52,732 nucleotides of DNA from a virus (taxonomy: Duplodnaviria; Caudoviricetes). The position numbers and the translations under genes were made by a program. The stretch spans positions 1 through 52,732 of IMG/VR virus record IMGVR_UViG_3300042294_004185; one strand, written 5' to 3'. Below, in pieces: positions 27,265 to 43,674 of the stretch. How positions within the stretch are numbered: position 1 is the stretch's first letter; each line of letters begins with the position of its first letter. The notes under the pieces are model-generated. The model was not told the origin of the DNA. It did no database searches and saw nothing but the letters and a program-made list of their open reading frames with translations.

Positions 27265-29859
27265 TTAAAATTTAAAAAACTTGTTTATGTTTGGATTAAG
27301 TACTACAGCACCCCATCCTAAATCGGAATATAATGACTCTAATTTGTTTTTCATAACTGAATCAAATAAGCCGTCTCTATCTATATATTTTTCTACAAAA
27401 TCTCTGATTTCCTGAGGGTCATTATAACCGTTAAATCCTATAACATCAATTCTATAAGGATTATCCTTTAAATAAGCAATAAACATTTTATCACCAATTT
27501 GAAATTTAGGATATTTTTTGTCTAAACCTTTAAATTTTAAAATATCGTTATAGTAAATTGCTGCTTTAGTATTAATAGGGCATTTTAGTCCTAATTTAGA
27601 AAATATTTCACCAGCACCTGGAGGTCCAGCTAAATATTCACTCATTTTCTTTAATCCTGTAGGTTTAAGGATTTTTTCCCAACCAATTGTTCTTAATTCG
27701 TTTCTAAAATCTAATATTTGTTTATCAATATCTGATTTAGGTTTACCAAACATAATTTCATTAATAATATGTTCACCGAATTTTTTAAACAATGGTGGGA
27801 AATTTGATTTCATCAAATCTAATCCTTTAACATCTAATTCATCTGTTGGTACACCTTCTTTATTAACAATATGTTGAGCGTATCTTCTCTTACCTGCAAA
27901 GTAACCTCTATCAAGTACAACCTCTTGTTTTAATTCAAAGTAATGAGGTTCATTAGGATAACTAATATTAAATAATTCTTGTACTAGAGTATGTAAATTT
28001 TCATTTGCTAATTTTTGAATTTCAGTAGCAACTTTAAGTACCTCTTGTACAATTGTTTCTTGATCTGCTGTAACTAATTTAGGGTTACGTTTTAAGATTA
28101 AATCTTTAACCTGAATGAATAGTGAATCGGTATCTGATGTAACAATATAATCTTTATCTTCTGTACCTAATTCTTGATTTAACCAATTATTTACAAATAC
28201 AATAGATTCTTGAGTTAAGCGTTGACCTGTTAAAGTAATTGCTTTACTAATAAATTTATTTCCATCAGTGTATCTCCAACCATTAATAGCAAATACCCCG
28301 TAAACGTCATTTAATTTAATTTTATACGCGTGTTGACGCCTATCGTAAAAAGATCCCATAACAGGGTCGTTATCTTCTTTATATGCTTTTTTCATGAGTT
28401 TTTTATACTCTTGACGTTTAGCAAACCAGTCAGATAAAATTTCACATACAACACTTGATTTGTCTTTACGGAACATCACTCCAGGTGCTGATATAATTAA
28501 ATCATTACCTTCAATAATTTCTATTAAGTCACCTACTTTAACTTGTGTATGAGATAATCTACGATCCTTTTTAACTTTTTCAATAGTAACAACAGTGTTA
28601 GAATCCATTGCTTTAAGTTCTTTAAGTGACCATTGGTTATCAAATTTACCTCTATTTACAACACGTCCAACTAACGTTTCAATACCCATATTAAGTGAAC
28701 GAATAATAGAAGGATACAAAGATGTAAAATCCAAGTCAATAACCCACTCATATAGTCCTGGTGTTGGATCTTTTAAATAACCACCAGCATATTCTTCTTG
28801 TAATGTTTGAAGTGCTGGATTATAAGTAGTAGGTTTATTAGGTGAAACTATACCTTTACGTTTTAGGTAAGTTAAAATAGCACCTTCATTTAATACTGTT
28901 GAAAAATAAATCGATTCATAAGTTGTATGACATAAGTGACCAATTGTAACTGTCAGCTCCATAAACTTCATTCGTTTTTCAAGCTCAACAATAATTTCAA
29001 CGTCACGTAAGTTATACTCAATAAACTTATCTACGTCTTCAGCAAATAATCTATCAAGTGAACCTTGATACTCAATCTTTTCTAATTTAGCATATTTTTT
29101 ACCAATATCACCTAAACGATAAGATGGCTCTTGTTTTGTAATAAACTTTTTAAACAAAAGCATATAATCAAGATGGTTAATACCTCCTAAGTTAACAGGT
29201 TGATCTTGATACTGAGGTGTAAATTTGATTTTACCAATTGGGGATAAAGTATTGGCCAAAGATTCGCCCATTACTTTTTTAATACGATAATATAAATAAG
29301 GTATATCAAAGAAACCACTATTCCAACCTGTAATAATTGTAGGGTCTAATTCATACCACTTATCTAAAAATCCACTCAATAATTCTTTTTCAGATGTATA
29401 AGGAATAATAATTTTGTCTTCAGACTCGGCTTTAGACATTTTACCTTCTTTATCTAAAATTAAACAGAAATATTTTTTAGAATTATGGTCATATAAAGCA
29501 ACAGCTGTTATTTCACCTTTAGGATCTTTAATATTTTCCTCAGTTAATGCTCCCGCTACTACACACTCAATATCAAGATAAACTATGTTATGGAATTTAG
29601 GTGTATCGTCAGATTCGTAATAGTAGTCTACTAACAGGCGAGTTAATTTATCAACGTCTTTTTCAAAGTATTTAGGGTCTTTCCAATCATCCATTCTTTT
29701 GGTTGGAGACACCCTAGTACCTTCTAACGTTTCAAACTCGCCATCAGGATCAGGTTGATATAAGGTAGGCCAGTGTTGTAAGGTTTTAAACCCTTCCCAT
29801 CTGTCATCTCTTAAATAATACTGTTTTTCTTCCTTATCGTAGTAGACCGCTTGATACAT
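27265..29859 (-). CDS. DNA polymerase family B (T4 gp43-like)
   Basis: Exo DIE, GWNSGFFD, YNLRD; Pol DFTSLYPS, KIKLNDVYG, SDTDS. Confidence 0.97.
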   Translation of the reverse strand: MYQAVYYDKEEKQYYLRDDRWEGFKTLQHWPTLYQPDPDGEFETLEGTRVSPTKRMDDWKDPKYFEKDVDKLTRLLVDYYYESDDTPKFHNIVYLDIECVVAGALTEENIKDPKGEITAVALYDHNSKKYFCLILDKEGKMSKAESEDKIIIPYTSEKELLSGFLDKWYELDPTIITGWNSGFFDIPYLYYRIKKVMGESLANTLSPIGKIKFTPQYQDQPVNLGGINHLDYMLLFKKFITKQEPSYRLGDIGKKYAKLEKIEYQGSLDRLFAEDVDKFIEYNLRDVEIIVELEKRMKFMELTVTIGHLCHTTYESIYFSTVLNEGAILTYLKRKGIVSPNKPTTYNPALQTLQEEYAGGYLKDPTPGLYEWVIDLDFTSLYPSIIRSLNMGIETLVGRVVNRGKFDNQWSLKELKAMDSNTVVTIEKVKKDRRLSHTQVKVGDLIEIIEGNDLIISAPGVMFRKDKSSVVCEILSDWFAKRQEYKKLMKKAYKEDNDPVMGSFYDRRQHAYKIKLNDVYGVFAINGWRYTDGNKFISKAITLTGQRLTQESIVFVNNWLNQELGTEDKDYIVTSDTDSLFIQVKDLILKRNPKLVTADQETIVQEVLKVATEIQKLANENLHTLVQELFNISYPNEPHYFELKQEVVLDRGYFAGKRRYAQHIVNKEGVPTDELDVKGLDLMKSNFPPLFKKFGEHIINEIMFGKPKSDIDKQILDFRNELRTIGWEKILKPTGLKKMSEYLAGPPGAGEIFSKLGLKCPINTKAAIYYNDILKFKGLDKKYPKFQIGDKMFIAYLKDNPYRIDVIGFNGYNDPQEIRDFVEKYIDRDGLFDSVMKNKLESLYSDLGWGAVVLNPNINKFFKF

Positions 29860-30356
29860 TACTTTTTATATGCTGTGTTTAAACCCTGCCACTGACCATC
29901 ATACTGTTCTCCAACTTCATCTACTTTCCAGAATGCAATTTGTCCAATACGAGCATTTTTTTCAATAATAATAACACTTGTTACAATCATTGTTGTGTTC
30001 ATTTGATCACAATAGAATCCTGGATCCCACCAAGGTGATTCGATAATAGTTCCTGTACGGTACAAAGATGAACGGTGAGTAATTTTAGCAGCAGCATCAG
30101 CAGGTACTTTAATACCTTCGTTAAATGTAACCGAATAAACACCCTTTTCAAGTCTCCAACATTCCTTACCATCAATAAGTTGTGTGAAGACTTCTTCATA
30201 ACCATCTGGATTAATGTAAGTTTTGTCTTTGTAAACAACAGAACCAACATTAATCGCTTCAATTTTACAAACTGATAAGTCAATACCAATTTGTGCACGT
30301 TTAGAGAAATCAGATTCAATAACGTGATTTGCGATTTGATTTGAATTTAATAACAT
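29859..30356 (-). CDS. dCTP deaminase / trimeric dUTPase family protein
   Basis: GIDL, RSSLYR, WDPGF, RIGQ, YDGQWQ. Confidence 0.85.
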   Translation of the reverse strand: MLLNSNQIANHVIESDFSKRAQIGIDLSVCKIEAINVGSVVYKDKTYINPDGYEEVFTQLIDGKECWRLEKGVYSVTFNEGIKVPADAAAKITHRSSLYRTGTIIESPWWDPGFYCDQMNTTMIVTSVIIIEKNARIGQIAFWKVDEVGEQYDGQWQGLNTAYKK

Positions 30357-30526
30357 TACTTTAATTTATTTAAAATTTTATCCCAAAACAAGTCTAACTT
30401 GTCTTTTCTTGCTTTACAGCCACAATCATCATAGCCCATTTTTTTGGCTATAAAGAGGGCAATACGGTAACCTTGCCCTAAGGTAATAATGTTTATTACC
30501 TTTTCAACAAAACCACCTAGCTTCAT
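30356..30526 (-). CDS. Small DCGC-motif protein (56 aa, not in ORF track)
   Basis: MKLGGFVEKVINIITLGQGYRIALFIAKKMGYDDCGCKARKDKLDLFWDKILNKLK; TAATG couplings at both ends. Confidence 0.65.
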   Translation of the reverse strand: MKLGGFVEKVINIITLGQGYRIALFIAKKMGYDDCGCKARKDKLDLFWDKILNKLK

Positions 30527-31218
30527 TAGATCTGATGTCCTCCGTTGTTGATTTTCAAGCTGTCAAAAAATTCCTTACGTGCTTGATTTTCGTTGTTCAA
30601 GAATACTCCTGATGCTTTTGTAGTAACCATTGAAGCTCCTTGATGTTTAACACCTCTACAGCTTACACAATTGTGAGTAGCAACTACAGTTACAATTACA
30701 CCTTTGTTGTTTTCACAGATTTTATCTACTGCTTGGTGGATTGCTGATGTAAGTTGTTCTTGAATAGCTCCTCTACGTCCAAAATGCTCAACAATACGAT
30801 TTAATTTAGACAAACCAATTACTGAACCATTTTCACCTACAATGTAACCAATATGAACTACACCTCCGATTGTTTGGTGGTGATGAGAACACATTGAGGT
30901 AAGTGGGATGTTACGTTCAATAACAATACCATCATAACCATCACTAGGGAATGAGGTAATGTCACTCATAGCATCATAACGGCCTTTCCACAAATCAAAT
31001 ACATAAGCTTTAGCTACACGACGAGGGGTGTCTGCTGAATTTGGATCGTTTCTCCAATCACATTGTAAAGCATCTAAAAATTTACCATATGCTTCTGCTG
31101 CCTCATCTACCATTGACCATTTTTCTTTCTCAGTAAATGGGAAACCAGGAGCAATACCATTGGCATAACCTTGTTTTACACACTCTAGATCGAGTGTAAA
31201 TGTTTTATTTTTTTCCAT
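30526..31218 (-). CDS. folE: GTP cyclohydrolase I
   Basis: DTPRRVAK, SMCSHH, GLSKLNR, IQEQLT, HNCVSCRGV. Confidence 0.95.
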   Translation of the reverse strand: MEKNKTFTLDLECVKQGYANGIAPGFPFTEKEKWSMVDEAAEAYGKFLDALQCDWRNDPNSADTPRRVAKAYVFDLWKGRYDAMSDITSFPSDGYDGIVIERNIPLTSMCSHHHQTIGGVVHIGYIVGENGSVIGLSKLNRIVEHFGRRGAIQEQLTSAIHQAVDKICENNKGVIVTVVATHNCVSCRGVKHQGASMVTTKASGVFLNNENQARKEFFDSLKINNGGHQI

Positions 31219-31230
31219 AACTTATATTGT

Positions 31231-31260: not shown

Positions 31261-32235
31261 TTAAAGTCCAAATCTTCCTTTTTGGGCGTTATAATTTTGT
31301 GATATTTCAGATGATGATAAAATCCTATTATAAATTCTATAAATACCTCCATTACCGGAAAAATAACCTTGTTCTGCCCATCTTGCTATTACAACGTTAG
31401 TAGTACCAATAAAAGAGGCTATAGTACCTGTTCCTTGAGATACATTATTTTTAAATATTTGACAAGCACCATTTGAAGCATTAAAAGTATAGACAATTTG
31501 ATACCAGTTATTTACAGTAACAGTTCCAGCAGAAAAATCCGAAGCATAATGTCCTTGATAAATCACTCCATTTCTGAATACTAAGTGTAAACCTTGTCTA
31601 AAACCTTGTTGATCAGTACCAAACATTGTTCTATCACCTGATAAATTTGTAGGATAAACCCATGCTTCCATAGTATAATTAGCATCATAAAACCCTAATT
31701 GTGTTGCTGTTTTACCCGTATTACAATAATCATCTGTTCCATCCCACACAATCGAACCACTATTAGCAGAATTAAACGCAGGATTATTTATTAATGTTCC
31801 ATTATTAGAATTCCCACTCAAATCATACCAAGTAGATCCTGTTGTTGGATATGAAGGATCAAAACCCGCATCATAATTCAACATTAATCCATTAGTTACA
31901 ATACCTTCATAGTTAAAATTAACACATAGTTTATCTGTTTGAGTAGCAAAATATTCTAAACATTGAGCTACTGTTGTATAACCTGCTGGAGAACCTACAG
32001 TCCCAGCAATATTTCTATTTGTGATATTAATTAATTGTGTATCATTAGCAGGACAATAAATACTAGGACCACCAGATGCTTTATTTAAATAAATTGTATA
32101 ACCACCAGATGGAGGATCGATACCATTAAAAAATGTTAGTCCATAATCAGCAGTATTATTACCAATTAACATATTGCCTTTTCTAAGACAACCTGTTGGT
32201 GTAGCACCTGTTGAATATTTTATTACGTTAGGCAT
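31261..32235 (-). CDS. LamG/concanavalin A-like domain protein (putative virion fibre/decoration), paralog 1
   Basis: GIVTNGL..YDAG..SYP..G.TWYDLSGN, DGTDDY, WVYP, RIYNRILS..EI.QNYNA. Confidence 0.8.
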   Translation of the reverse strand: MPNVIKYSTGATPTGCLRKGNMLIGNNTADYGLTFFNGIDPPSGGYTIYLNKASGGPSIYCPANDTQLINITNRNIAGTVGSPAGYTTVAQCLEYFATQTDKLCVNFNYEGIVTNGLMLNYDAGFDPSYPTTGSTWYDLSGNSNNGTLINNPAFNSANSGSIVWDGTDDYCNTGKTATQLGFYDANYTMEAWVYPTNLSGDRTMFGTDQQGFRQGLHLVFRNGVIYQGHYASDFSAGTVTVNNWYQIVYTFNASNGACQIFKNNVSQGTGTIASFIGTTNVVIARWAEQGYFSGNGGIYRIYNRILSSSEISQNYNAQKGRFGL

Positions 32236-32240
32236 TTAAA

Positions 32241-32507
32241 TTAAATAGGATAAGGTGGAGTCCACTCAGGTGTAGATAAAATAGTTAAAATTTCATTGTA
32301 AGTATATTCTTGAGATTTACTTGTTAAACTAGATACTGATGAAGGCATTGGCATATCATATTTAACAAATGTTTTTGTTTCATCAACAGATTTTCTAACT
32401 GTATCAGCATCTGTTTCAAATACTTGATTAAAATTAATTTTATTAAGTTCTGTTACATTAAATATAACAAAACGTCTGTCGGGGTATTGTTCTTGTTCTA
32501 GTGACAT
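32241..32507 (-). CDS. Small conserved phage protein between the LamG paralogs
   Basis: 88 aa; RKSVDETKTFVKY...EW; TATTTATA 4 nt upstream. Confidence 0.65.
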   Translation of the reverse strand: MSLEQEQYPDRRFVIFNVTELNKINFNQVFETDADTVRKSVDETKTFVKYDMPMPSSVSSLTSKSQEYTYNEILTILSTPEWTPPYPI

Positions 32508-32519
32508 ATGGTATAAATA

Positions 32520-33554
32520 TTAAAGGCCGAAGCGACCTTTTTGAGCGTTGTAGTTTTGGGTGACTTCTGTTGATAGAAGAGCACGATTATATATTAGCAA
32601 ATTATATTGCGTCATTTGAGGTGACCATCCACCAGAGGGAAAATTACCTAATATGTCCGTAGTTGATTGTGATAGACCTGAGCTTTTAGTTGCTGTATTT
32701 GTATAAATTTCACTATTATTTAAATATATTTTAGTAGTTGCCTGCGTAGATGAAATAGGTGTCCAAGTTAATACACAGTGGTAAAAAGTATTTACACTTA
32801 ATGTTGTTGATGTCAAATGTAACCAAGGATTATAACTATCACCTGCACCTATCCACCACCTTAAAACAGGATTTCCCCCATTTGCATTAATAGAAAAATG
32901 CCAAAAATTATTACTTGCACCACCACTACCTCTATATAATATACTTCTTCCATCTCCATTAGGAATTGAAAAATCAGATGGTAATTTTATCCAAGTCAAA
33001 ATAGAAATTCCATTTGGATATAAACTGTTAAAAAAAGAATCATTAACACCATCACAAGTCATAATATCATCAATTCCATCATAAACTATCCCCCCACTAT
33101 TAGCCGAATTATATGTAGGACCATTTGTTAATGTTTCGTTTCTATTATTTCCACTTAAATCATAAAGTGTTGTTCCCGTTGTAGGATATGAACCAACAAA
33201 CCCAGCATCTGTGTTTAATACTAACCCATTAGTAACTATACCTTCATAGTTTATATTAACACATAATTTGTCAGACTGTCCAGCAAAATAATTTAAACAT
33301 TGAGCAGCTGTTGTATAATTTGCCCCCGCAATTTGATTAGTAATAAAAATTAATTGAGTATTGTTAGCAGGGCAATAAATACTAGGACCACCACTAGCTT
33401 TATTTAAATAAACAGTATAGCCACCAGATGGAGGGTCAATGCCGCTAAAAAAAGAGGATCCATAGTTAGCTGTGTTATTAGCAATTAACATATTACCTTT
33501 TTTTAGGCAACCTGTTTCAACAGCTCCTGTTGTATATTTTATTCCGTTAGGCAT
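32520..33554 (-). CDS. LamG/concanavalin A-like domain protein, paralog 2
   Basis: Highly similar N-terminal half and identical QNYNAQKGRFGL end versus 31261..32235. Confidence 0.8.
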   Translation of the reverse strand: MPNGIKYTTGAVETGCLKKGNMLIANNTANYGSSFFSGIDPPSGGYTVYLNKASGGPSIYCPANNTQLIFITNQIAGANYTTAAQCLNYFAGQSDKLCVNINYEGIVTNGLVLNTDAGFVGSYPTTGTTLYDLSGNNRNETLTNGPTYNSANSGGIVYDGIDDIMTCDGVNDSFFNSLYPNGISILTWIKLPSDFSIPNGDGRSILYRGSGGASNNFWHFSINANGGNPVLRWWIGAGDSYNPWLHLTSTTLSVNTFYHCVLTWTPISSTQATTKIYLNNSEIYTNTATKSSGLSQSTTDILGNFPSGGWSPQMTQYNLLIYNRALLSTEVTQNYNAQKGRFGL

Positions 33555-33569: not shown

Positions 33570-34070
33570 CTAATCTTCAGCCATAATGCCTGTAATATAC
33601 TTTTGATTACGTTTTAATCCATTTTCAGCATCTAAACCATATCCAATCAACCAATGTTCGTTAGTTAATTCAAATCCATAAATTAAATCGGGATGTTTAG
33701 AATAATGTTTTTTAAATAATGTTACAGGAATAATAGATTTAGGATTATTATATTGAAGATGTTTTATCAAATGATTCATAGTATTACCTGAATCATAAAT
33801 GTCATCTATAAGATAAACATCTTTTCCTTCAATATCAACAGTAATTGATTTTAAAATTCTTATTTCACCCTGCTTAGTTCCATCGTAAGATTTCGCACTA
33901 ACAAAATCTATTTCACAATCATCTACTTGTTTAACCAAGTCCGTAAAAAACATAAACGCGCCATTTAAAACGCATATAAACACGGGTGGATTTTCGTGTT
34001 GATTCTTTTTAATTTTATAGGCAATCTCACCTACTTTGTTTTTAATTTCTAATTCTGAGAACAATATCAT
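33570..34070 (-). CDS. hpt: Hypoxanthine-guanine phosphoribosyltransferase-like protein
   Basis: VLNGAFMFFTDL, KSY, PRPP motif YLIDDIYDSGNT, IGYGLD. Confidence 0.9.
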   Translation of the reverse strand: MILFSELEIKNKVGEIAYKIKKNQHENPPVFICVLNGAFMFFTDLVKQVDDCEIDFVSAKSYDGTKQGEIRILKSITVDIEGKDVYLIDDIYDSGNTMNHLIKHLQYNNPKSIIPVTLFKKHYSKHPDLIYGFELTNEHWLIGYGLDAENGLKRNQKYITGIMAED

Positions 34071-34312
34071 AAAATAACTTTTTTCAAAAACTCGGTAATT
34101 TCTTTTATACCTTCAAATTTATGTTTTCCATTTTGATCTTCCAACATAAATGTAGGAACCCATTTAATATCAAGAGATTCAATTAACATGCCTTCTTCAT
34201 AAGTGTTAATAGAAGTAATTTCAAATATTTGTTTTAATTCCTCTATTACAGGTTTTAAATCCTGACATTTAGGACATTCGGGGTTATAGAAGAAGGTTAA
34301 TTTTGGTTTCAT
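34067..34312 (-). CDS. Thioredoxin-like protein
   Basis: CPKC, VPTF cis-Pro motif. Confidence 0.8.
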   Translation of the reverse strand: MKPKLTFFYNPECPKCQDLKPVIEELKQIFEITSINTYEEGMLIESLDIKWVPTFMLEDQNGKHKFEGIKEITEFLKKVIL

Positions 34313-34884
34313 TTTATTAAGTATTTTTTAAAGTCTGAGTATTCGGGAGTTTTGTTTGGGAAATAATATTTTTCTGTTTTATTATTAAATGTAATTATTT
34401 TATAAAATCCATCAGGAACTGTAGCTCCAGTAGCTAATTTTAAAGACGTTGTACTATACACCATTCTAATTTCTACACTAACTGTGGTGGTTGCTGCTAG
34501 GTCGCGCTCATATGACTCTAATATACGCCATACACCGCGATTTAAGCGCTCATGTTGTAAAACACAATTTGCATAAGTAAATGTTTTATATAATAATTCT
34601 TTTGTACAATTAAAATCAGCAGCAGGAGCACAATGTCCTTTATCATAAACATTATTTGCATAATCATTATTATCAGAAGTAATCAAATTAGGTTCAGCAT
34701 AAAAATCCATTCCTGTACGAGGTGCTTTACCATTAGGACATTGAACAGTATATTTAACCCATTTTGGTTGTTGTAATACTTCAGAATAAACTTCTGTAAA
34801 AATGTCTGTTTTAAGATAGACTGAATCTCTTTGAGCAAATGCTACTAAAGGTAATAAAAATAATACTAATAATAATTTTTTCAT
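34309..34884 (-). CDS. Secreted DNA/RNA non-specific endonuclease (NucA/EndoG family)
   Basis: Signal peptide MKKLLLVLFLLPLVAFA|Q; YDKGHCAPA (DRGH), LNRGVWRILE, VPDGFYK. Confidence 0.9.
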   Translation of the reverse strand: MKKLLLVLFLLPLVAFAQRDSVYLKTDIFTEVYSEVLQQPKWVKYTVQCPNGKAPRTGMDFYAEPNLITSDNNDYANNVYDKGHCAPAADFNCTKELLYKTFTYANCVLQHERLNRGVWRILESYERDLAATTTVSVEIRMVYSTTSLKLATGATVPDGFYKIITFNNKTEKYYFPNKTPEYSDFKKYLIK

Positions 34885-34896: not shown

Positions 34897-35268
34897 TTAC
34901 ATTTTATTCCATTTATTGTTGGAATCTAATACAAAACTACCTACACATTCATATTTCCATTCATTAGGTTTAATCATTGATAAAAATATATTTCCATCTC
35001 TTCCAACATATAAATGATATGTTTGTCCTATAACTGGTTCGAAATTAAATTTAGCATTATAAACTAATTCGTTCCATTTATATTCCTCTACTAATTTTTT
35101 ATATTCATCTTTTAATTCATTAAATCTAGTTTGTAGTTGATGATTTACTTTAATAGAATTAATAGATTTCCAGATAGTGGTATCTTCAACCCTAATAGCA
35201 GGAGCACTTACATTACTACCATAAGGTAATAATCCCGGGTTTTCAGCTACATTATCTGGTTTTTTCAT
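34897..35268 (-). CDS. DUF2452-like protein
   Basis: LLPYGSNVSAPAI, VYNAKFNFEPVIGQTYHLY, LSMIKPNEW. Confidence 0.65.
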   Translation of the reverse strand: MKKPDNVAENPGLLPYGSNVSAPAIRVEDTTIWKSINSIKVNHQLQTRFNELKDEYKKLVEEYKWNELVYNAKFNFEPVIGQTYHLYVGRDGNIFLSMIKPNEWKYECVGSFVLDSNNKWNKM

Positions 35269-35666
35269 AGTTTTGAGGGAGGGGTGTTGAATATTCTTTT
35301 AACTTGTTCTGATATTGGGATAGGAACACCTTCTTCATCTACACGAACAAAAGTCATATTGGTAGCAAGTAAAACAACTTCATCACCTCTAAATACATTG
35401 TATGCTCTTGCTTCTACATTAAATGTAGCTGATGTGTTTCCTATTTTAACTAATTGAGCATAAATTTTAACAAGTTGTTTTTCTTTGGCAGGTTTTTTAA
35501 ACACACACTTATCCATAGCAATAGTAATCATGTTTTGACTTCTACATCTTTCCATAGCATAGGCAGCAACAGCAGCATCTAACCAGCTAAGTAATTTACC
35601 ACCAAATAGATTACCATGAAAACCTAAATCTGATTTTTTAACGGGGTGGGTTGATAATAAATTCAT
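35265..35666 (-). CDS. Hotdog-fold acyl-CoA thioesterase (YciA-like)
   Basis: HGNLFGGKLLSWLD, GNTS, TFVRVDEEGVP. Confidence 0.9.
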   Translation of the reverse strand: MNLLSTHPVKKSDLGFHGNLFGGKLLSWLDAAVAAYAMERCRSQNMITIAMDKCVFKKPAKEKQLVKIYAQLVKIGNTSATFNVEARAYNVFRGDEVVLLATNMTFVRVDEEGVPIPISEQVKRIFNTPPSKL

Positions 35667-36457
35667 TAAACAGCTCTCTTAGTATCATAACTAATAATGT
35701 GGTCACGACCTGTCCAATTATAACCCATTTCAAATGCTTTTTCTAATGAAATAGGATATTGTTTAATTAATTCCTCTCTGTTATCTCCAGCAGGCATCAA
35801 CCAAGTTTTATTTTTAGGAATATTCATTTCAACTCTAAATCCCTCAATTTCATCCATTGTGGTTTGAGTACCATCATAAACTGGTTTATAATGAAAATCA
35901 GTATGATAGTCTAATGTTTTACGAATTGCCTCTTTATTTAAACGAAGTTTATTATGTTGGTCAATCATTTTTTGATCAACGAGTTTACCCATTGGAGTGG
36001 TAGTGTCAAGGCTAGGAACAGAATTACTAAACTTTGGAGATAAAGATACCAACCCAAATGGATAATCGGTTTCAATAAAGTGACTACCTTCTGTTTCAAT
36101 GGTTATACATATACCACGCTCGTGAGCAAAGTGAGTTAATTCATTACACAAATCAGGTTGCATAGTTGGTGAACCTCCAGTTAACATCATTTCTTTAATT
36201 TCAGGATTTTCATCATAAATCTTAATAATGTCGTTAAATGTATAAATACCTTTTTCTGGGTGGATACTTGTGTACCAAGAATCACACCAACCTCCAGCAC
36301 CAAACCAACATCTATGAGTACAACCTGTTGTTCTAATAGCTACTGTTGGGCGACCTTGTCTTGAACCTTCACTTTGAATACAAGTATAAACTTCAAGTAC
36401 AGGTAATTTTTTGTTATAGTCGAGAATACGACCTGGTTTTTTAGTTTCTGTTGTCAT
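35666..36457 (-). CDS. queE: 7-carboxy-7-deazaguanine synthase (radical SAM)
   Basis: IQSEG, RTTGCTHRCWFGAGGWCDS, LTGG, ETEG, SLSPK. Confidence 0.92.
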   Translation of the reverse strand: MTTETKKPGRILDYNKKLPVLEVYTCIQSEGSRQGRPTVAIRTTGCTHRCWFGAGGWCDSWYTSIHPEKGIYTFNDIIKIYDENPEIKEMMLTGGSPTMQPDLCNELTHFAHERGICITIETEGSHFIETDYPFGLVSLSPKFSNSVPSLDTTTPMGKLVDQKMIDQHNKLRLNKEAIRKTLDYHTDFHYKPVYDGTQTTMDEIEGFRVEMNIPKNKTWLMPAGDNREELIKQYPISLEKAFEMGYNWTGRDHIISYDTKRAV

Positions 36458-37017
36458 TAGAATTCATATTTTGAGTTTGAACGATATTCATTTAGATATT
36501 TTTCCATATCATCTTTAGACATAGGTTTAATATCTTCTTGGTAAATGCTAGAATTTTTATCTGCTTCCCAACATTCTACTTTGGTTACTTTAACTCTACC
36601 ACCACCTTGTTTAGATAATACATCATTAAATTTATCATATACTAATTTAGCAGCAGATTCAGCTCCAATTTTATCCATAATACGTAAATGACATACTGTT
36701 GGATTCATTGAAACAAATAAATCTAAATATGGATCATCTTTTTCAATTAATAAAGTATGATCCCACATATAATCCATCCAATCTTTTAATCCATTACCTG
36801 GAGTTGGTTTGGCATCTACTGATTTAAATCCACCATAGTCTTGAATCCAATTCATTTCATCTAATTGGTTTTCTTCTAATGGTTCTACTGATTCAAACCA
36901 TACTTTAAATTTTAAAGCATAACCATGAAGTAGTTGACAATGTGAATGTTGTGCTTTCCATTGTCTAATAGCAACTGAATAGTTGTCAAATAATTTTGTT
37001 GATTGATATTTACCCAT
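36457..37017 (-). CDS. queD: 6-carboxytetrahydropterin synthase
   Basis: HCQLLHGY, DYG, WDH, AE, WE..KNS. Confidence 0.9.
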   Translation of the reverse strand: MGKYQSTKLFDNYSVAIRQWKAQHSHCQLLHGYALKFKVWFESVEPLEENQLDEMNWIQDYGGFKSVDAKPTPGNGLKDWMDYMWDHTLLIEKDDPYLDLFVSMNPTVCHLRIMDKIGAESAAKLVYDKFNDVLSKQGGGRVKVTKVECWEADKNSSIYQEDIKPMSKDDMEKYLNEYRSNSKYEF

Positions 37018-37258
37018 TGTTAATAAATTGCATTACTTGTTCATATGATTTCGCACCTACAAATCTACGAACTTCTTGTCCGTTTTCCACGAGTATTACA
37101 GTAGGAACACTCATAACATTTGCACCACGAGCTCTATCCATTTCATAATCAATGTTAATTTTTTGAACACCAATTTGTTGTCCTACTTTATCCATAACTG
37201 GACCTAATGCTTGGCAAGGACCACACCAAGGGGCTGTAAAATAAAATAATTGTTTCAT
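37010..37258 (-). CDS. Thioredoxin
   Basis: APWCGPC, SVPT, RFVG. Confidence 0.92.
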   Translation of the reverse strand: MKQLFYFTAPWCGPCQALGPVMDKVGQQIGVQKINIDYEMDRARGANVMSVPTVILVENGQEVRRFVGAKSYEQVMQFINNG

Positions 37259-37410: not shown

Positions 37411-37625
37411 TTTAATAATTCTTCTTCGTTAATTAATTCGGCTCCATAAGTAAATTCTAAAAGCCGTGTTGTATTTTCTTTATGTAATGGTTTTGCTTCA
37501 AACCAATTACCGGACCATTGAGCAGAACCTCCTTTTAATCCGGTAAATACCTCCCCTGCTCTATTAATTACTACATACATAGGAACAGAGGGAGGTGATT
37601 TTCTATACTGTTTTCGTGTGTTCAT
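37407..37625 (-). CDS. Hypothetical protein
   Basis: 72 aa ORF inside the que cluster. Confidence 0.55.
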   Translation of the reverse strand: MNTRKQYRKSPPSVPMYVVINRAGEVFTGLKGGSAQWSGNWFEAKPLHKENTTRLLEFTYGAELINEEELLK

Positions 37626-38502
37626 CTAGAACGGAAGATACGTACTCTTTTACAAATTCCCAAGTTACTGGTCCGAATTCGTCAGCATAACTTACAGGAT
37701 CTTTACGACCTAGTTTTATAAATGCTTCTACTCGTTCAACAGATGATGCTGATTTGTAATCACTAAACCAATCTTCTTCTTCAACAATACCACCATCTTC
37801 AGTATCATAATATACTGTTAATTTAATTGGTTTATAGGATGTATTAGTACGTCTATAAACTTCATCAAAATTAAGTCCAAGGGTATGACAACAAATCTCA
37901 CCATCAACTAAAATACCATACTTATCATCTTCAAGATATGGAGTATAATAAGTTACTTTTTCAGCACCCCAGTTACCTGCTTTAAATGCTTCATAATCAA
38001 TATCTCTAAATTCTTGTCTACAATCAGGATAAATTGCATGGTCACCAGCATGAATACCCATTGCAATAACACATTCTGTATTTTTAGATTCTGCAATTGA
38101 TAAGGCAACGGCTTGAATAATTGAACTAAAGATTTTGTTACGATTAGGAACAACAGTCGCTTTCATATTTTCTTCAGCATAGTGTCCTTCAGGAACTTCT
38201 GCTCCACCTGTTACAAGTGCTGAATTTAGTAGTTGACTCAATCCATCAAGTTTAATTACTTGATAATTAACTTTAGGAAAGTGATGTAAAATAACTTCTG
38301 ATGTTTCAGATTTGTATTTAACTTCATCTGCTTTACTATTTAAATAATCAACTAAAGACTGTGCACGTTCAAGTTCAACTGAATGTTTTTGTCCATAATC
38401 AAAGGATAATGCTGTAACTTCATAGCCATTGGCGAGTAGATGAAGCAGCAAGGTAGAGCTATCCATTCCTCCACTTAGTGATAATACTGCTTGTTTATTC
38501 AT
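37603..38502 (-). CDS. queC: 7-cyano-7-deazaguanine synthase
   Basis: SGGMDS, FDYGQKH, VPNRN, YPDCR; C-terminal Zn-binding cysteines absent. Confidence 0.92.
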   Translation of the reverse strand: MNKQAVLSLSGGMDSSTLLLHLLANGYEVTALSFDYGQKHSVELERAQSLVDYLNSKADEVKYKSETSEVILHHFPKVNYQVIKLDGLSQLLNSALVTGGAEVPEGHYAEENMKATVVPNRNKIFSSIIQAVALSIAESKNTECVIAMGIHAGDHAIYPDCRQEFRDIDYEAFKAGNWGAEKVTYYTPYLEDDKYGILVDGEICCHTLGLNFDEVYRRTNTSYKPIKLTVYYDTEDGGIVEEEDWFSDYKSASSVERVEAFIKLGRKDPVSYADEFGPVTWEFVKEYVSSVLDEHTKTV

Positions 38503-38629: not shown

Positions 38630-38839
38630 TTAAAATGGTAAATTATCTATTTGTTCAACTTTAAAATACTTATCTAACCAATCTTTAGGATAAAGCATTA
38701 CTTTACCTGTATATCTTGGGTTTGAAATTTCTCGAATTGTACGAGATATTTTTTCTTCAGCCGCTGCTTTATAAACATTAGCTCCTAATTCTTTACCTGC
38801 TGGTTTGCCAAGGTAATCAAAAAGTGATATCATTTCCAT
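38630..38839 (-). CDS. Hypothetical protein
   Basis: SLFDYLGKPAG...YTGKVMLYP. Confidence 0.6.
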   Translation of the reverse strand: MEMISLFDYLGKPAGKELGANVYKAAAEEKISRTIREISNPRYTGKVMLYPKDWLDKYFKVEQIDNLPF

Positions 38840-38844: not shown

Positions 38845-39621
38845 TTATTTTAATAACTTTCTAAACATTCTTAAATTCCAATCCAACAAATTATAATCTA
38901 ATTCTGTGGTATAGAAATTATCATTCATATTTGATTTTGGTTTATCAAGTAAACCATTTCGACCATATTGAATACCATCTAAAGTTGCCATAATAGGATT
39001 TGATGTATCAATAGTTTCAATAAATCCAGCATCTTTATACCAACTAAATTCTTGTGGTACCTGACAACCTAATAAATGTACTCTATCATTTGGTTGAATT
39101 AAACCCATACTATACATTCTACCTATTACTTCAATTCTACCTAATGCTTTTGCTAAATTTTTATTAGGATGATTAGAATGATCTAAATAATATTCAGCAC
39201 CATAAGAGAATGCAATTTTCTTATAACCTAAATCTCTATACGTTTGATAACAAAGCATAGCATCTAAGAAATTCTGTGCTTGAACTACTGCTACCTTAGT
39301 AACTTCTTTAGGTAATTCAATTTGGGCCCAAAATCTAGCATTAACAATAGATTGAGTTGTATCTTGCCAAACATCAGGTACAATAAATTCATTTGGTTTT
39401 AACTCGTTAATCCAGTGTATTAAACGAGATTTATCATATGCTACTCCTAATTCATGTAATGAATTATCCATTATCATATACACACCTTGTTTTTTAACTT
39501 TATAAAAAAAGTCTTTGTAATCTTCGTCTTGATCTAACAAATGAGGTAAACAATACTGATAGTCATTAAAATCTAGACTATCTTCTAATAAACAAATAGG
39601 AACTTCATGACTAATTTTCAT
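38845..39621 (-). CDS. Divergent TGT-fold protein, putative DpdA-like deazaguanine transglycosylase
   Basis: Ordered TGT-like motifs MDNS, VPDV, VVQ, VHLLG, IDTS; heads the que operon. Confidence 0.7.
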   Translation of the reverse strand: MKISHEVPICLLEDSLDFNDYQYCLPHLLDQDEDYKDFFYKVKKQGVYMIMDNSLHELGVAYDKSRLIHWINELKPNEFIVPDVWQDTTQSIVNARFWAQIELPKEVTKVAVVQAQNFLDAMLCYQTYRDLGYKKIAFSYGAEYYLDHSNHPNKNLAKALGRIEVIGRMYSMGLIQPNDRVHLLGCQVPQEFSWYKDAGFIETIDTSNPIMATLDGIQYGRNGLLDKPKSNMNDNFYTTELDYNLLDWNLRMFRKLLK

Positions 39622-39657: not shown

Positions 39658-40170
39658 TTAAAATTTAGGGGGAGGTTGGATTTTAGGTAGATTTCTTGAG
39701 TTTTTATATGCCTCTAGAAATTCAGGTATAGTACCTTCAAACGATTCAAACATCTCTTTGATTTGATCTTCATTACCACCAAAACTATTTTTAACATCTT
39801 TGACAAATGTGGTCCAACGATTCAACTCATCACGTTCAGCATCATTCAACAAACGCTTTCTACGCTCCCAATACAATTTTGTAATTTGTCTTTCAGCCCA
39901 ACCAAAATTTTCCATAGCACCTGTATAAGTAGATTTGAATTTTTTAATTTCTTGTTCTTCAAACCAAAATTCCCATTCACGCTGTTTCCAATAAGGTGAA
40001 ACATCATAATCACCATTTTTTGCCTTATCCCAAATAGAAGCCATTTTAGACAACGATTTGTGCTCTTGATAACGCCTCCACCAAAAAAACTTATTATACG
40101 TTTTATTTGGTTTTGGAGGAGTTGGATCGTAAGTGGCTTTCCACTCTAAAAAATCTTGAATTACACTCAT
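39658..40170 (-). CDS. Hypothetical protein
   Basis: 170 aa, aromatic-rich. Confidence 0.6.
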   Translation of the reverse strand: MSVIQDFLEWKATYDPTPPKPNKTYNKFFWWRRYQEHKSLSKMASIWDKAKNGDYDVSPYWKQREWEFWFEEQEIKKFKSTYTGAMENFGWAERQITKLYWERRKRLLNDAERDELNRWTTFVKDVKNSFGGNEDQIKEMFESFEGTIPEFLEAYKNSRNLPKIQPPPKF

Positions 40171-40397
40171 ATACCCATTTCCTTTTTTAAATCATATTCT
40201 TCTTTTTCAACCTCAGAATACACATTAAGGTTTAAATAAGTGTTATTCCAAGCATTATGAAACAAATTTTTAGCTTCTTCAGCATCCCATGCTTTACAAA
40301 ACTCATACTCCTCTTGAGTAAGGATTTCTTTATTAAACATCAATTCTTGGTACTTTCTGTACTCTTGCTCTACTTCGTAAATTTTTTGATTCATCAT
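40167..40397 (-). CDS. Hypothetical protein
   Basis: 76 aa following the AGAAATAAAGGTTATG leader. Confidence 0.6.
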   Translation of the reverse strand: MMNQKIYEVEQEYRKYQELMFNKEILTQEEYEFCKAWDAEEAKNLFHNAWNNTYLNLNVYSEVEKEEYDLKKEMGI

Positions 40398-40422: not shown

Positions 40423-40452
40423 AATATACAAAAGGGATTTGACAAAGCCAAA
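40423..40452 (-). promoter_or_regulatory. -33/-7 promoter overlapping a terminator
   Basis: TTTGGCTTTGTCAAATCCCTTTTGTATATT. Confidence 0.75.
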
Positions 40453-40456
40453 TCCC
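40430..40456 (-). terminator. Intrinsic terminator after the EF-hand membrane protein
   Basis: GGGATTTGGC-TTT-GTCAAATCCC hairpin (one GU pair) followed by TTTT. Confidence 0.65.
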
Positions 40457-40479
40457 CTCGCAAAGTTTTTAAAAGTTTT

Positions 40480-41805
40480 TTAGAAGTAAGTTATAGTATT
40501 ATCGTCATCTTTTTTATTCTTTAAAGACCCTAATTCCATACTTAATTTTTTTATTTCTTCTATTTGTTTATTAATGTTACTTAATTCTTCTGGGTTGAAA
40601 TTGTAATATTGTTTTACATTATCTACAACGCCTTCAACTTGTTTATTTAGTTGATTTAATTTTGATGCTGTTTCTGGGTCTAGATTAGCTGCTTTTGCTT
40701 CTTCTTCATCTATATAACCATCATTATTAGTATCTGCTTCTTCAAATACTTGTTGTAATTCTTCTTCCTCTATTACACCATCTCCGTCTAAATCTAGATT
40801 TTTAGATTCTTGTTCTTGTTCTTCATAATATAGTTTACCTGTTTTAGGATCTACAAATACAGGAATAGGTTTTTCTTTTTCTTGTTCCTGTTGTTCCCAA
40901 TTTTGATAATCTACTAAACTAGCTTCTTCCCATTCTTTTATTTCATCTTCTAAATCATCGTATGCCTCTACTACTTTTCTCATATCCTCTACTTTTTCTT
41001 CTATTGGTGTTTCTCTACGTTTAGTAAGTTGGGCAAAAGCAAAGTTAGCGGCTATAACAAGAGCAATAGCTAATGGATCAAACACAAATATAATAACTAA
41101 TATGTACCAGTTAATAATTCGGTCCATAGCAACTCCAGTAAGAGTACTTAAATATTTTAATGGACCTAATTCACTTTCAGCTGTAGCTGTATTTTTAATT
41201 TCTAATATTTTGGTTTCTAAAGAAAAAATAGAATCATTTACTACATCTAATTTAGCAGATAGTTTTTCATCTGATTTAGAGGCATTTTCTATCTGTTTAA
41301 TAGTAGCATTATTTGATCTTACTACTAAATTACCTTTTTTATCAGTATATTGAGTAGTTGAACCCTTAGATAATGTACCTTTTAGTTCTGATAGTGATTG
41401 TTTTTCTTTAAGAATACCATCTCTATTACTTTCATAAAGTTTCTTTTTAGTTTCTAAAGATGCTATTTTAGAATCAACAATACTTGTTTGGTCCGCAGTT
41501 TTCTGATATGCTGAAGATAAGTAACCATAAATACCAGCAGAGGTAATTAATATTAATACTGCTGCTGCTATAGTTAAATAAGTTCTTAATATTTTATTTA
41601 GTTTATTCCAGTACTGATAAAGTAAAGAAGCAATTACTAATTTAGATATTTCTAGAGAAGCTGCCATAATGATTACAGCGGTACTAGCCCCAGCAAATAA
41701 CATGCTAAGGCCAGTAACACTATAAACTGCAGCAGATGCACTTACAGATAGTGCGGAAAGTGCGATTATTAAAGGAAATATCCTTTCTTTTATACTGTTC
41801 CACAT
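40480..41805 (-). CDS. Multi-pass membrane protein with coiled coil and C-terminal EF-hand-like loops
   Basis: Three N-terminal TM segments, coiled coil, a fourth TM (IIFVFDPLAIAL), DLDGDGVIEEEE and DTNNDGYIDEEE. Confidence 0.75.
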   Translation of the reverse strand: MWNSIKERIFPLIIALSALSVSASAAVYSVTGLSMLFAGASTAVIIMAASLEISKLVIASLLYQYWNKLNKILRTYLTIAAAVLILITSAGIYGYLSSAYQKTADQTSIVDSKIASLETKKKLYESNRDGILKEKQSLSELKGTLSKGSTTQYTDKKGNLVVRSNNATIKQIENASKSDEKLSAKLDVVNDSIFSLETKILEIKNTATAESELGPLKYLSTLTGVAMDRIINWYILVIIFVFDPLAIALVIAANFAFAQLTKRRETPIEEKVEDMRKVVEAYDDLEDEIKEWEEASLVDYQNWEQQEQEKEKPIPVFVDPKTGKLYYEEQEQESKNLDLDGDGVIEEEELQQVFEEADTNNDGYIDEEEAKAANLDPETASKLNQLNKQVEGVVDNVKQYYNFNPEELSNINKQIEEIKKLSMELGSLKNKKDDDNTITYF

Positions 41806-41817
41806 ATCTTATAAATA

Positions 41818-43674
41818 TTAAACTACCTCACAGGCTCCACCTGCACAAGCGGCTTGATCCATTAACGCTGTATTATCACTCATTTCAACAACTCGTGACA
41901 AATCTACCTCGTGTAATGATTTTACTGCTTCGTTAAATTGTTCTTCAGTAATGGTTTCAAAAGGTGCTTGTTTGTAAGTACCTAAATCCTCAGGTAAGAA
42001 TGACAATGCGGTAAAATATTCTTTATTTTCATAAAGCCATTCTCCAACTGCAGGCCATTCATCTTGTTTAATAGTAACAGTAGCTGATACGTTATGCATG
42101 TTAGCACCTTTTCTATGTCCTGGTTTAATCCAATTTTTGTTAATTGTTTTAATACGCTCTAACATATCCATAGCTGATTCTTTACGTGTAATAGCACCTT
42201 CTGGAGCACGTTGAGGAACAGAAACAATTGATTGAAGATTTGGTTTAAAGAAATCATCTTCCAACATTTCAGGATGGTAAATACTTAAGTAAGTATACAA
42301 AGCTTCATTTTTACCTAAACGGATTCTACGTAAATAGAAATCATCATGCCAAGCGTGAATACCTGAACTAGTACCTAATACTAAAGATGTAGTACCTGAT
42401 GGTTTAACTGTAGTAACACGAGCTGCTTTATTAATACCTAATACTTTAGCTAAACGTTCGTTTTCCTCACAAGCTACTTTAGCTGCTTCTTTCATATTTA
42501 ACTTAAACACAGCACCTGAAGCAATACCTGTCATTCCAATACCTAGCAATGCTTCTTTTTCAGTTGTTTTTCTCCAAACATCTCTTAAGTAATGGAAATC
42601 AGTATATGAAGCTTGTAATGTACCAATAAATGCTGCTGCTTTAGCTCTTGCATTATATTCTTCTTGAGTTTCAATATCGCTAGCGTTAATTTCACACAAG
42701 TTACAGAATTGATTAGCTTTTAAGTTAATTTCAGCACAAGGGTTTGTTCCAGCATCTTTATCATTTGTAAAGATAAATCCAGGTTCACCACTATTAGATG
42801 CCTCAATTTTACCCCACAAATTCATAAATGTTTCTTTATCAATCATATTACGAAGTAATACTGCTGAGTTATTAGCACGACCACGTTGTGGATTATTTTC
42901 CCACCAGTTACCAAACTTACAAGTCAACATATCTTCATCATGTAAATTGAATAAAGCAATTAACGCTGCTCTACGAATACCACCTGATAATACAGCATCA
43001 GCTAAGTGACAAATAATATCGTGACATTCCAATGTTGTTAATTTTTCACCATCATTTTTACGGTCTAAAATAGCTTGCATATGAATCAAAGCAATTTTCA
43101 ATGGTTCAGGACCTGGTGCTTTACCACCAACTGTAATCAACGAAGCACCTTTAGCTCTAATGTCTCTAAAGTCAAATAGAGGAGCAGTTGATGTTTGTCC
43201 AAAATATGCTTTAGTCAACATACGAACAGCATCAGCCCATCCTTCAATAGAATCACCTACTAAATAACGCTTTGATTTCAAAGGTTTTCTAATTTCAGGT
43301 AGTTTTTCTACGTGGTGGGTTTGTACTGAGTACCCTACTCCACAGCCTGAAAGTAATAAAAACATAATTTCAGAGAATGCTCTAAAATCATCAATTGGTA
43401 AGTAAGAACAGTTAAAAATACGAGCATTGTTTATTTCAATTGGTTTACCAGCAAATTGCATTGAACGCATTGAAGGTAATACCTTTTTGTCATAAACATA
43501 CTTGTAAGCGGCTTCAATTTCTTCAGCCAATTGTGGAAATTTCTTTAAATGCATTTCCTTGTTTCGAGTTACTAGCTCGTCCCATGTTTCTCTTCTGTTT
43601 TTTTCAGGTACGAATTTCGCATACTTGAGATGGGTAGTAATTTCAGACAAAATTTGTGATTCTGTGGTTAACAT
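41818..43674 (-). CDS. nrdJ: Class II (adenosylcobalamin-dependent) ribonucleotide reductase
   Basis: FNC, GCGVG, TNPCAEI, CNL, TVKPSGT, C-terminal CAGGAC; no adjacent small subunit. Confidence 0.9.
   Translation of the reverse strand: MLTTESQILSEITTHLKYAKFVPEKNRRETWDELVTRNKEMHLKKFPQLAEEIEAAYKYVYDKKVLPSMRSMQFAGKPIEINNARIFNCSYLPIDDFRAFSEIMFLLLSGCGVGYSVQTHHVEKLPEIRKPLKSKRYLVGDSIEGWADAVRMLTKAYFGQTSTAPLFDFRDIRAKGASLITVGGKAPGPEPLKIALIHMQAILDRKNDGEKLTTLECHDIICHLADAVLSGGIRRAALIALFNLHDEDMLTCKFGNWWENNPQRGRANNSAVLLRNMIDKETFMNLWGKIEASNSGEPGFIFTNDKDAGTNPCAEINLKANQFCNLCEINASDIETQEEYNARAKAAAFIGTLQASYTDFHYLRDVWRKTTEKEALLGIGMTGIASGAVFKLNMKEAAKVACEENERLAKVLGINKAARVTTVKPSGTTSLVLGTSSGIHAWHDDFYLRRIRLGKNEALYTYLSIYHPEMLEDDFFKPNLQSIVSVPQRAPEGAITRKESAMDMLERIKTINKNWIKPGHRKGANMHNVSATVTIKQDEWPAVGEWLYENKEYFTALSFLPEDLGTYKQAPFETITEEQFNEAVKSLHEVDLSRVVEMSDNTALMDQAACAGGACEVV

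Follow-up and report, generated by a model that had tools for sequence, protein, structure and literature searches.

Introduction

Complete replacement of guanine (G) by 7-deazaguanines occurs in the DNA of some phages, and DpdA3 is the enzyme credited with it. In Hutinet et al. (2023, PMC10516641), DpdA3 is said to allow complete replacement by dADG in Campylobacter phage CP220, by dDG in Cellulophaga phage phiST and by fdPreQ1 in Flavobacterium phage immuto. The same text proposes that all such deazaguanine modifications are post-replicative, and reports both that attempts to demonstrate DpdA3 activity in Escherichia coli failed and that the 7-amido-7-deazaguanine (ADG) nucleoside was seen in CP220-infected cells. 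In the characterised members of the Queuovirinae, 16–32% of G is replaced, according to PMC10484667 and PMC10516641. Here, we describe a locus of this kind in a 52,732-nucleotide stretch of viral DNA, IMG/VR record IMGVR_UViG_3300042294_004185, positions 1 to 52,732 (the whole stretch is referred to below as the window), in which the genes for a DpdA3-subfamily protein and for the pathway to preQ0 enclose a gene for a 6-oxopurine phosphoribosyltransferase (PRT).

Judged from its genes, the source is an uncultured large phage related to immuto, with a module of the DpdA3 type for 7-deazaguanine modification of its DNA. The DpdA3 systems were already known; to them, the locus adds a new and divergent member, from a large environmental lineage in which the preQ0 pathway is complete and no tailoring enzyme was found. 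The PRT is a recurrent accessory in many phage lineages, where it adjoins GTP cyclohydrolase in either order, is swapped between non-homologous forms, or is fused to the cyclohydrolase FolE. A first reading of the window, made from its letters and open reading frames (ORFs) (the sequence-only reading), had offered two roles for this enzyme: conversion of preQ0 or 7-carboxy-7-deazaguanine (CDG) to a ribonucleotide, or recycling of guanine released by DpdA. We favour the second with moderate confidence, that is, the PRT would return guanine displaced by the base swap to new deazaguanine precursor, within a DpdA3 module that makes preQ0.

The DpdA3 Module and the Predicted DNA Base

The window (52.7 kb, G+C ~30%) was estimated by CheckV to be ~32% complete, which corresponds to a full genome of about 165 kb. 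Megablast of the whole region gave a sole match, a 444-nt folE stretch in phage immuto. Matches to Pfam, PHROG and NCBIfam models identified folE, queD, queE and queC (Table 1), in agreement with the full route to preQ0 claimed by the sequence-only reading; for QueE, the Pfam Radical_SAM score was slightly below the cut-off.

A protein of 258 aa, encoded together with FolE, QueD, QueE (and QueC), had no match in Pfam or NCBIfam. By tblastn, it was 33% identical to immuto DpdA (98% of length) and 34% identical to CP220 gp056; the two alignments covered 91–98% of the length, with E values of 4e-42 and 7e-34. A profile built from 16 relatives aligned end to end with the DpdA3 of phiST, CGPG_00065, at an hhalign probability of 95.9% (E = 6e-9), against a probability of 0.3% for the DpdA of Vibrio phage VpKK5. 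When an AlphaFold model of the protein (predicted local distance difference test, 82) was searched with Foldseek, ranks 1–50 were exclusively structures of tRNA-guanine transglycosylase (TGT), ArcTGT and DpdA, and the modelled protein is of the TGT-like (β/α)8 fold. Among PDB sequences, the DpdA3 profile found designed TIM barrels and noise and nothing else; the relation to TGT is visible only by fold and by kinship with the published DpdA3 proteins. VpKK5 DpdA had no PDB sequence match either. Two residues, D52 in a DNS motif and D205 in an IDTS motif, are invariant in the 16 sequences and align with Asp residues in phiST DpdA3; they are putative counterparts of the catalytic Asp residues of TGT. 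At 258 aa, the protein is short, its pI is acidic (5.4), and it lacks a Cys-rich motif.

On these comparisons, the 258-aa protein is a member of the published DpdA3 subfamily, the founding members of which are CP220 gp056, phiST CGPG_00065 and immuto DpdA. The sequence-only reading had described a divergent DpdA-like enzyme whose place among the DpdA subfamilies was to be found. That place is with DpdA3, and both the kinship with DpdA and the TGT fold were borne out, but the family had already been published under that name (PMC10516641). A GenBank label that describes a NadR-type kinase fused to the DpdA3-like gene of Bacillus phages was also followed up; at 262 aa, that gene has room for no additional domain and contains none, the label is apparently spurious, and a separate Walker-A gene is located upstream.

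QueC of the window is 66% identical to immuto QueC over 98% of its length. In an alignment of QueC proteins (window 37603-38502, L056:2992-3873), a C-terminal CxxCxxC motif was present in VpKK5 but missing in the window, immuto and a Stenotrophomonas phage, and the window and immuto proteins had an insertion besides. Because immuto, which has the same form, needs preQ0 for its QueF, the Cys-less form probably makes the nitrile, and the window QueC would by analogy probably produce preQ0. QueF (PF14489), a DpdN-type formyltransferase (PF00551) and the ArcS core (PF17884) were all absent from the window, which holds ~32% of the genome, and from two relatives with completeness ratings of 100% and 99%. 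There was also no Gat domain among the window ORFs scanned with Pfam. The statement of the sequence-only reading that queF, arcS and gat-queC are absent is thus upheld, for QueF and the ArcS core in the window and for Gat among the scanned ORFs. Given the full preQ0 pathway and the lack of these tailoring enzymes here and in the two relatives, the predicted base in the phage DNA is dPreQ0 or, less likely, dADG, if the window QueC stops early. The replacement of G is probably near-complete, as in other DpdA3 phages.

A Phosphoribosyltransferase Tied to GTP Cyclohydrolase

The PRT of the window matched PF00156 over its full length, and the HPRT that the sequence-only reading had placed inside the locus is thus present as an Hpt-type PRT. 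Hypoxanthine-guanine PRTs (HGPRTs) in the PDB matched it at 1e-27, and the aligned motifs (in 4qri and 1hgx) comprised the phosphoribosyl pyrophosphate (PRPP) loop, the Ser-Tyr loop, a Lys and the aromatic-GYG-D motif. In these enzymes, the acidic loop serves in PRPP binding, the Lys serves the O6 and the aromatic residue stacks. Fifteen phage sequences of 40–79% identity retain the motifs. At least 734 metagenomic relatives of the window PRT were found, with 73–96% identity among the 120 listed.

Related loci were compared at the slot between queE and folE. Apart from immuto, 37 IMG/VR loci with DpdA3 were found; 18 end before this region, and the slot holds a PRT in all of the 19 that are informative (19/19) as well as in immuto. 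The occupant takes three forms: the window-type Hpt, of 66–79% identity (10 loci), a second Hpt-type of 40–46% (6 loci), and a short, Gpt-like PRT of ~130–150 aa (3 loci and immuto, where it lies beside folE). The best PDB matches of the short PRT were xanthine-guanine PRT (XGPRT)/GpT enzymes, and BLAST alignments between the Hpt-type and the short PRT were confined to the PRPP loop. The catalytic 6-oxopurine PRT motifs are retained in all three forms.

At least 433 viral stretches encode relatives of the short PRT, and we examined the best 80 loci. Clustering of their PRTs gave 44 groups at 80% identity and 11 at 60%. Every one of the loci (80/80) has a que or folE gene within 4 kb of the PRT. 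FolE or FolE2 is found within 4 kb in 76/80 loci and within 150 bp in 63/80, the PRT coming before the cyclohydrolase in 31 loci and after it in 45. Four loci (4/80) had no cyclohydrolase match, and two of these end just past the PRT. In one relative, 99% complete, the short PRT is followed by FolE2 (PF02649 3.6e-71) in place of FolE (L039:14235-15744). Since the short PRT occurs both with QueF (in immuto) and without it (in G002, 99% complete), the type of PRT does not track the end product.

The two genes are also found fused. The 300-aa "FolE" of VpKK5 and of a Stenotrophomonas phage consists of an N-terminal PRT domain followed by FolE at residues 117–293. The PRT domain (~116 aa, Gpt-like) is intact, with RGG, DDIxDSGxT and VFPWE motifs. 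With this domain as the query, tblastn found 44 phage records, and in 34 of them the match coincides with folE (annotated as FolE in 31, without annotation in 3; the Pfam domain layout was checked in 2). The hosts of the 34 are Vibrio, Stenotrophomonas, Pseudomonas, Variovorax, Xanthomonas and Sphingomonas. Further lineages have other arrangements: Brevundimonas phage MaInes has the order dNMP kinase, FolE, XPRT, and the PRT of phiST neighbours a dNMP-kinase-like gene and a ribonucleotide reductase (RNR), at a distance of 17 kb from its que genes.

A gpt-like PRT was also seen to adjoin queE in the PA5oct-like Pseudomonas jumbo phage Callisto (L055:3812-6372), with a DpdL-like QueD paralogue, 33% identical to phiST DpdL, 0.8 kb upstream. 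These genes are hints of a deazaguanine pathway in this jumbo-phage group.

The adjacency of PRT and cyclohydrolase survives displacement of both partners, both gene orders and fusion, which provides good comparative evidence that a 6-oxopurine PRT is functionally tied to the first step of the pathway. The link between PRT and deazaguanine clusters appears not to be in print yet. In searchable full text (supplements and subscription papers lie outside it), no paper was found that connects a phosphoribosyltransferase with the DpdA or FolE clusters of phages, and the words "phosphoribosyl", "HPRT" and "thioesterase" have 0 occurrences in the text of PMC10516641, whose Supplementary Data S1 gene tables could list the PRT.

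Role of the Phosphoribosyltransferase

The gene identities, the synteny, and the linkage and fusion of PRT and cyclohydrolase described above are observations; in what follows, we infer the substrate of the PRT, the direction of the flux and the level of replacement. FolE, QueD, QueE and QueC would convert GTP to preQ0, and DpdA3 would swap guanine for the deazaguanine, acting on DNA after replication, as the literature assumes. An exchange of the TGT type would free one guanine per site. The PRT would then combine guanine, from the swap and from nucleic-acid breakdown, with PRPP to form GMP, which host kinases would convert to GTP and FolE in turn to fresh preQ0 precursor. This would close a loop in which every excised guanine could pay for the next deazaguanine, and the PRT would also clear guanine, a competitor of preQ0 at the transglycosylase. 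A rough scale follows from the G+C content (~30%) and the genome size (~165 kb): each genome copy would contain ~50,000 G, and replacing them all would free about as much guanine as the pathway needs GTP. If guanine is recycled in this way, the modification would be nearly self-financing in purine and a competitor of the exchange would be removed. The suggestion of the sequence-only reading that the HPRT recycles guanine released by DpdA thus receives support from comparative genomics, through the slot, the cyclohydrolase adjacency and the fusion.

A number of points weigh against guanine recycling. Most of the counted loci belong to related phages and so do not represent independent events; independence holds for the displacements, for the occurrence of both gene orders and for the fusion. 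The PRT is an accessory and not a requirement, because CP220 replaces 100% of G without a phage PRT: PF00156 had 0 matches in the entire CP220 record, and no Campylobacter phage was among the PRT matches. Nor is there a PRT within 6 kb of the Bacillus and Weizmannia DpdA3-like clusters. Guanine is most likely the base used by the PRT, but sequence cannot fix specificity. The model TIGR01203 covered the window PRT over positions 1–164 of 167 at 4.6e-37, but its 127.4 bits are below the 150-bit equivalog cut-off, and the protein is therefore filed as an Hpt-type 6-oxopurine PRT and not as an Hpt equivalog. According to PMC6112128, TubE is a PRT that uses the 7-deazapurine CDG, a precedent for a different substrate. 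Two kinase steps separate GMP from the GTP on which FolE acts, and adjacency or fusion would thus join enzymes that are not consecutive. Finally, post-replicative action of DpdA3 is a proposal of the literature only, next to the failed attempts at activity in E. coli (PMC10516641).

We considered the possibility that the deazaguanine enters before replication, with DpdA3 as a mononucleotide guanine/7-deazaguanine exchanger and not a DNA enzyme. A pyrophosphatase would convert dGTP to dGMP and so keep G out of the DNA, DpdA3 would swap the guanine for preQ0, P-loop and host kinases would raise the product to the triphosphate, and PolB would incorporate it; the PRT would still salvage the freed guanine toward FolE. 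Such a route would parallel the hydroxymethylcytosine (hmC) route of T4 and the Z-genome route. A MazG-like or DCD-like, pyrophosphatase-like gene is indeed found within 1.5 kb of the PRT in 71/80 loci. It fills the slot from folE to polB by non-orthologous displacement (dUTPase/DCD-like in the window, MazG-like in other loci), and it adjoins or lies near DpdA3 in immuto and phiST. Kinase-like P-loop genes flank DpdA3 in CP220 (an HD+AAA_33 fusion protein and an AAA_28-like protein, L002:8868-11361) and stand beside it in immuto (an AAA_28 protein, L001:13478-14002), while in Bacillus phage BSTP12 (L143:5342-5905) and Weizmannia phage Youna2 (L144:5387-5938), a gene for a Walker-A protein extends into the start of the DpdA3-like gene. 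The short, acidic form of DpdA3, without Cys-rich motif, is also in line with action on mononucleotides. The route, if true, would explain the 100% replacement, the failure in E. coli and the nucleoside in CP220-infected cells, which are reported in PMC10516641.

However, phages commonly have a dUTPase or MazG gene beside the polymerase, and dUTP clean-up accounts for it. Beyond the P-loop models, no significant assignment to a family or a PDB entry was obtained for the kinase-like proteins, and PDB sequence searches with the MazG-like protein and the two P-loop proteins beside DpdA3 brought no significant match. Relatives in the window's own lineage carry the AAA_28 homologue ~50 kb from DpdA3. 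Furthermore, we know of no TGT-fold enzyme that acts on mononucleotides. In our view, exchange at the nucleotide level is unlikely. Separately, a supposed thymidylate kinase beside immuto DpdA3 was discarded, as the match is actually to AAA_28.

The sequence-only reading had also proposed that the PRT acts with PRPP on a finished 7-deazapurine (preQ0, CDG or ADG), giving a ribonucleotide to be reduced by the RTPR-like RNR and incorporated by PolB. The gene block does bring together an NTP-reducing class II RNR, thioredoxins and PolB; TubE, which belongs to the same Pfam family, has been proven to act as a CDG:PRPP phosphoribosyltransferase (PMC6112128), and 100% replacement is reached in DpdA3 phages (PMC10516641). 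The comparative evidence nevertheless makes this route improbable. The PRT is linked or fused to FolE or FolE2, at the entry to the pathway, and not to QueC or DpdA at its exit, and the fusion sits in VpKK5-like clusters with a conventional DpdA, in a subfamily whose characterised members replace 16–32% of G in the literature cited above. The type of PRT is independent of the end product, CP220 has no PRT, and DpdA3 would be left without a role. Standard 6-oxopurine PRT motifs are found in all forms, including the Asp that contacts the purine N7 in HGPRTs, although a 7-deazapurine has no N7.

As a further alternative, the PRT might serve purine salvage in general, as an auxiliary member of the nucleotide-metabolism block that has nothing in particular to do with deazaguanine synthesis. 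This is again a poor prospect: purine salvage genes do occur in phages, the PRT sits among nucleotide and replication genes (RNR, thioredoxins, nuclease), and that of phiST is beside an RNR and 17 kb from the que genes, but a cyclohydrolase within 150 bp in 63/80 loci in both orders, adjacency kept despite displacement of both partners, and fusion with FolE all argue for a special tie, and the Hpt-type matches in 50,697 phage records were otherwise unannotated short contigs or bacterial-like records.

Gene Order and Neighbouring Genes

All genes within 23–46 kb of the window are encoded on the minus strand. Read as transcribed, the block begins with a flap endonuclease, a DnaB-like helicase, the class II RNR and a 441-aa EF-hand protein, followed by two further ORFs, dpdA3, a 69-aa ORF, queC, two small ORFs, a thioredoxin, queD and queE. 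It continues with the hotdog thioesterase, a DUF2452 protein, the non-specific nuclease, the second thioredoxin, the PRT, two Laminin_G_3 genes, folE, a 56-aa ORF, the dUTPase/DCD-like gene, polB and the gene for a 246-aa acidic protein, and ends with Hsp20, GroES and GroEL. From folE to the 246-aa ORF, the genes are tightly packed, with junctions of −1 to +2 nt. Promoter-like matches in a promoter scan were at chance level (119 vs 104.6 ± 10.7), and the promoter that the sequence-only reading has folE share with dcd, polB and the clamp is thus no more than putative; Rfam and tRNA scans of the window found none, preQ1 riboswitch included.

Table 1. Features of the DpdA3 locus in the window, and the fused genes of other phages. 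Coordinates are those of the window unless a locus number is given.
Feature	Coordinates	Strand	Evidence
Possible sliding clamp (246 aa, acidic)	26522..27262	-	Language-model atlas lead to PCNA/gp45 clusters, 0.94; conserved after polB
Family B DNA polymerase (PolB)	27265..29859	-	PF00136 2.7e-33; PF03104 1.7e-18
dUTPase/dCTP deaminase (DCD)-superfamily NTP pyrophosphatase-like	29859..30356	-	NF002598 dUTPase 3.3e-24 vs dCTP deaminase 1e-8; PDB 9w59 1.3e-13
FolE (GTP cyclohydrolase I)	30526..31218	-	PF01227 4.9e-42
Two Laminin_G_3 genes and 88-aa ORF	31261..33554	-	PF13385; PHROG virion structural protein-like
Hpt-type 6-oxopurine PRT (166 aa)	33570..34070	-	PF00156 9.2e-26; full-length
Thioredoxin	34067..34312	-	PF00085 1.2e-8
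Non-specific DNA/RNA endonuclease	34309..34884	-	PF01223 2.8e-24
Hotdog-fold (4HBT) thioesterase	35265..35666	-	PF03061 5.4e-17; 60% identical to immuto26A_50
QueE (radical SAM CDG synthase-like)	35666..36457	-	PHROG QueE-like 4.4e-45; TIGR03365 3.7e-15
QueD (6-carboxy-tetrahydropterin (CPH4) synthase-like, 186 aa)	36457..37017	-	PF01242 (PTPS) 7.2e-10; PHROG QueD-like 1.5e-32
Thioredoxin	37010..37258	-	PF00085 1.1e-17; conserved in related loci
QueC (299 aa)	37603..38502	-	PF06508 5.8e-35
Conserved small ORF downstream of DpdA3 (69 aa)	38630..38839	-	Beside dpdA3 in most related loci, 33–62% identity
DpdA3-subfamily TGT-fold protein (258 aa)	38845..39621	-	phrog_19058 2.2e-38; tblastn; hhalign; AlphaFold/Foldseek
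Two conserved ORFs upstream of DpdA3 (170, 76 aa)	39658..40397	-	Related loci carry them, two forms
Class II RNR, RTPR-like	41818..43674	-	TIGR02505 5e-80; phrog_367 1.1e-128
PRT-FolE fusion, annotated GTP cyclohydrolase (VpKK5 gp32)	L051:4998-5900		Pfam
PRT-FolE fusion, annotated GTP cyclohydrolase (Stenotrophomonas phage gp47)	L052:4971-5864		Pfam

The class II RNR that the sequence-only reading had placed just upstream is confirmed. The "dcd" of that reading does belong to the DCD/dUTPase superfamily, but the archaeal-type dUTPase model fits it much better than the dCTP deaminase model does. Its "clamp" has a language-model lead and no Pfam or PHROG match, and is listed here as a possible sliding clamp.

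Some members of the block vary between related loci. Most of these loci, though not every one, have the hotdog thioesterase between queE and the PRT. The two Laminin_G_3 genes, which are paralogous, and the 88-aa ORF are inserted between PRT and folE in the window alone (0/39 compared loci), and the non-specific nuclease is a variable member, present in 1/37 IMG/VR loci (L012). The two conserved ORFs upstream of dpdA3 had no match in Pfam, PHROGs or NCBIfam, nor, for the 170-aa ORF, in the atlas; the 69-aa ORF downstream had no Pfam or PHROG match.

The 441-aa protein with EF-hand motifs (40480-41805) is conserved and lies between the RNR and the deazaguanine genes. In the gap between its gene and the first ORF of the DpdA3 block there is a strong terminator-like hairpin (13 pairs and a T run, 40431-40459, minus strand). 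GroEL, GroES and Hsp20 are encoded at 23483-26452. Elsewhere in the window (6596-19788, minus strand), there is a large sugar/glycan biosynthesis island with several glycosyltransferases (GT2, GT1 and GT10-like), an RmlD/epimerase-like protein, an acetolactate-synthase-like thiamine pyrophosphate enzyme, an AroB-related sugar-phosphate cyclase (TIGR04425, 330 bits, under the cut-off), a short-chain dehydrogenase/reductase, an HpcH-like aldolase, a methyltransferase-like protein and an RfbH/DegT-like pyridoxal phosphate enzyme.

Comparison with Known Systems

Pre-replicative systems, such as those for hmC in T4 and for the Z-genome, rely on three activities: a dNTPase to deplete the canonical dNTP, an enzyme for synthesis of the modified dNMP, and a kinase for dNMPs. 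The window has a dUTPase/DCD-like pyrophosphatase, and searches of the window and its relatives with PF21448 (0/5) and PF02223 (no true match) found no dNMP kinase. An AAA_28 P-loop protein is encoded in relatives, but far from DpdA3.

In the Streptomyces clusters for deazapurine nucleoside antibiotics, a PF00156 PRT (TubE/ToyH) is encoded, as in the window, beside FolE, QueD and QueE homologues, and the substrates of TubE are CDG and PRPP (PMC6112128, and bioRxiv 10.64898/2026.04.15.718813 for the TubE/ToyH clusters). These clusters, which are likened here by description and not by sequence, differ in that they have no TGT or DpdA and make free nucleosides.

Clusters of the Queuovirinae type (queE-queC-queD-folE-dpdA; for example, in VpKK5) share with the window the preQ0 pathway and a 6-oxopurine-type PRT tied to FolE. 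In these, however, PRT and FolE are domains of one protein, DpdA shows no relation to DpdA3 at the profile level, and replacement of G is reported to be partial in the characterised members of the subfamily.

Among the phages with DpdA3, CP220 (Firehammervirus; 100% dADG) resembles the window in its DpdA3 homologue, 34% identical, and its que genes. It differs in the lack of a PRT in its record, in the dispersal of the genes, and in the HD-kinase and AAA_28-like genes that flank DpdA3. In phiST (100% dDG), the DpdA3 is related at the profile level (95.9%), FolE is 62% identical, a Gpt-like PRT is present in the genome, and a MazG-like gene adjoins FolE; unlike the window, phiST has no QueC, has DpdL, and carries its PRT away from the que genes (17 kb), next to the dNMP-kinase-like gene and an RNR that is of class I.

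The third of these phages is immuto, to which the source of the window is related. The two phages differ in that immuto has a short Gpt-like PRT, a MazG-like pyrophosphatase, QueF, a DpdN formyltransferase and a family A polymerase, where the window has an Hpt-type PRT, a dUTPase/DCD-like protein and PolB, with no QueF or DpdN found. They have in common DpdA3 (33% identity), FolE (63%), QueE (64%), the Cys-less QueC (66%) and the hotdog thioesterase (60%), together with a PRT beside folE, an NTP pyrophosphatase after folE, and GroEL/GroES.

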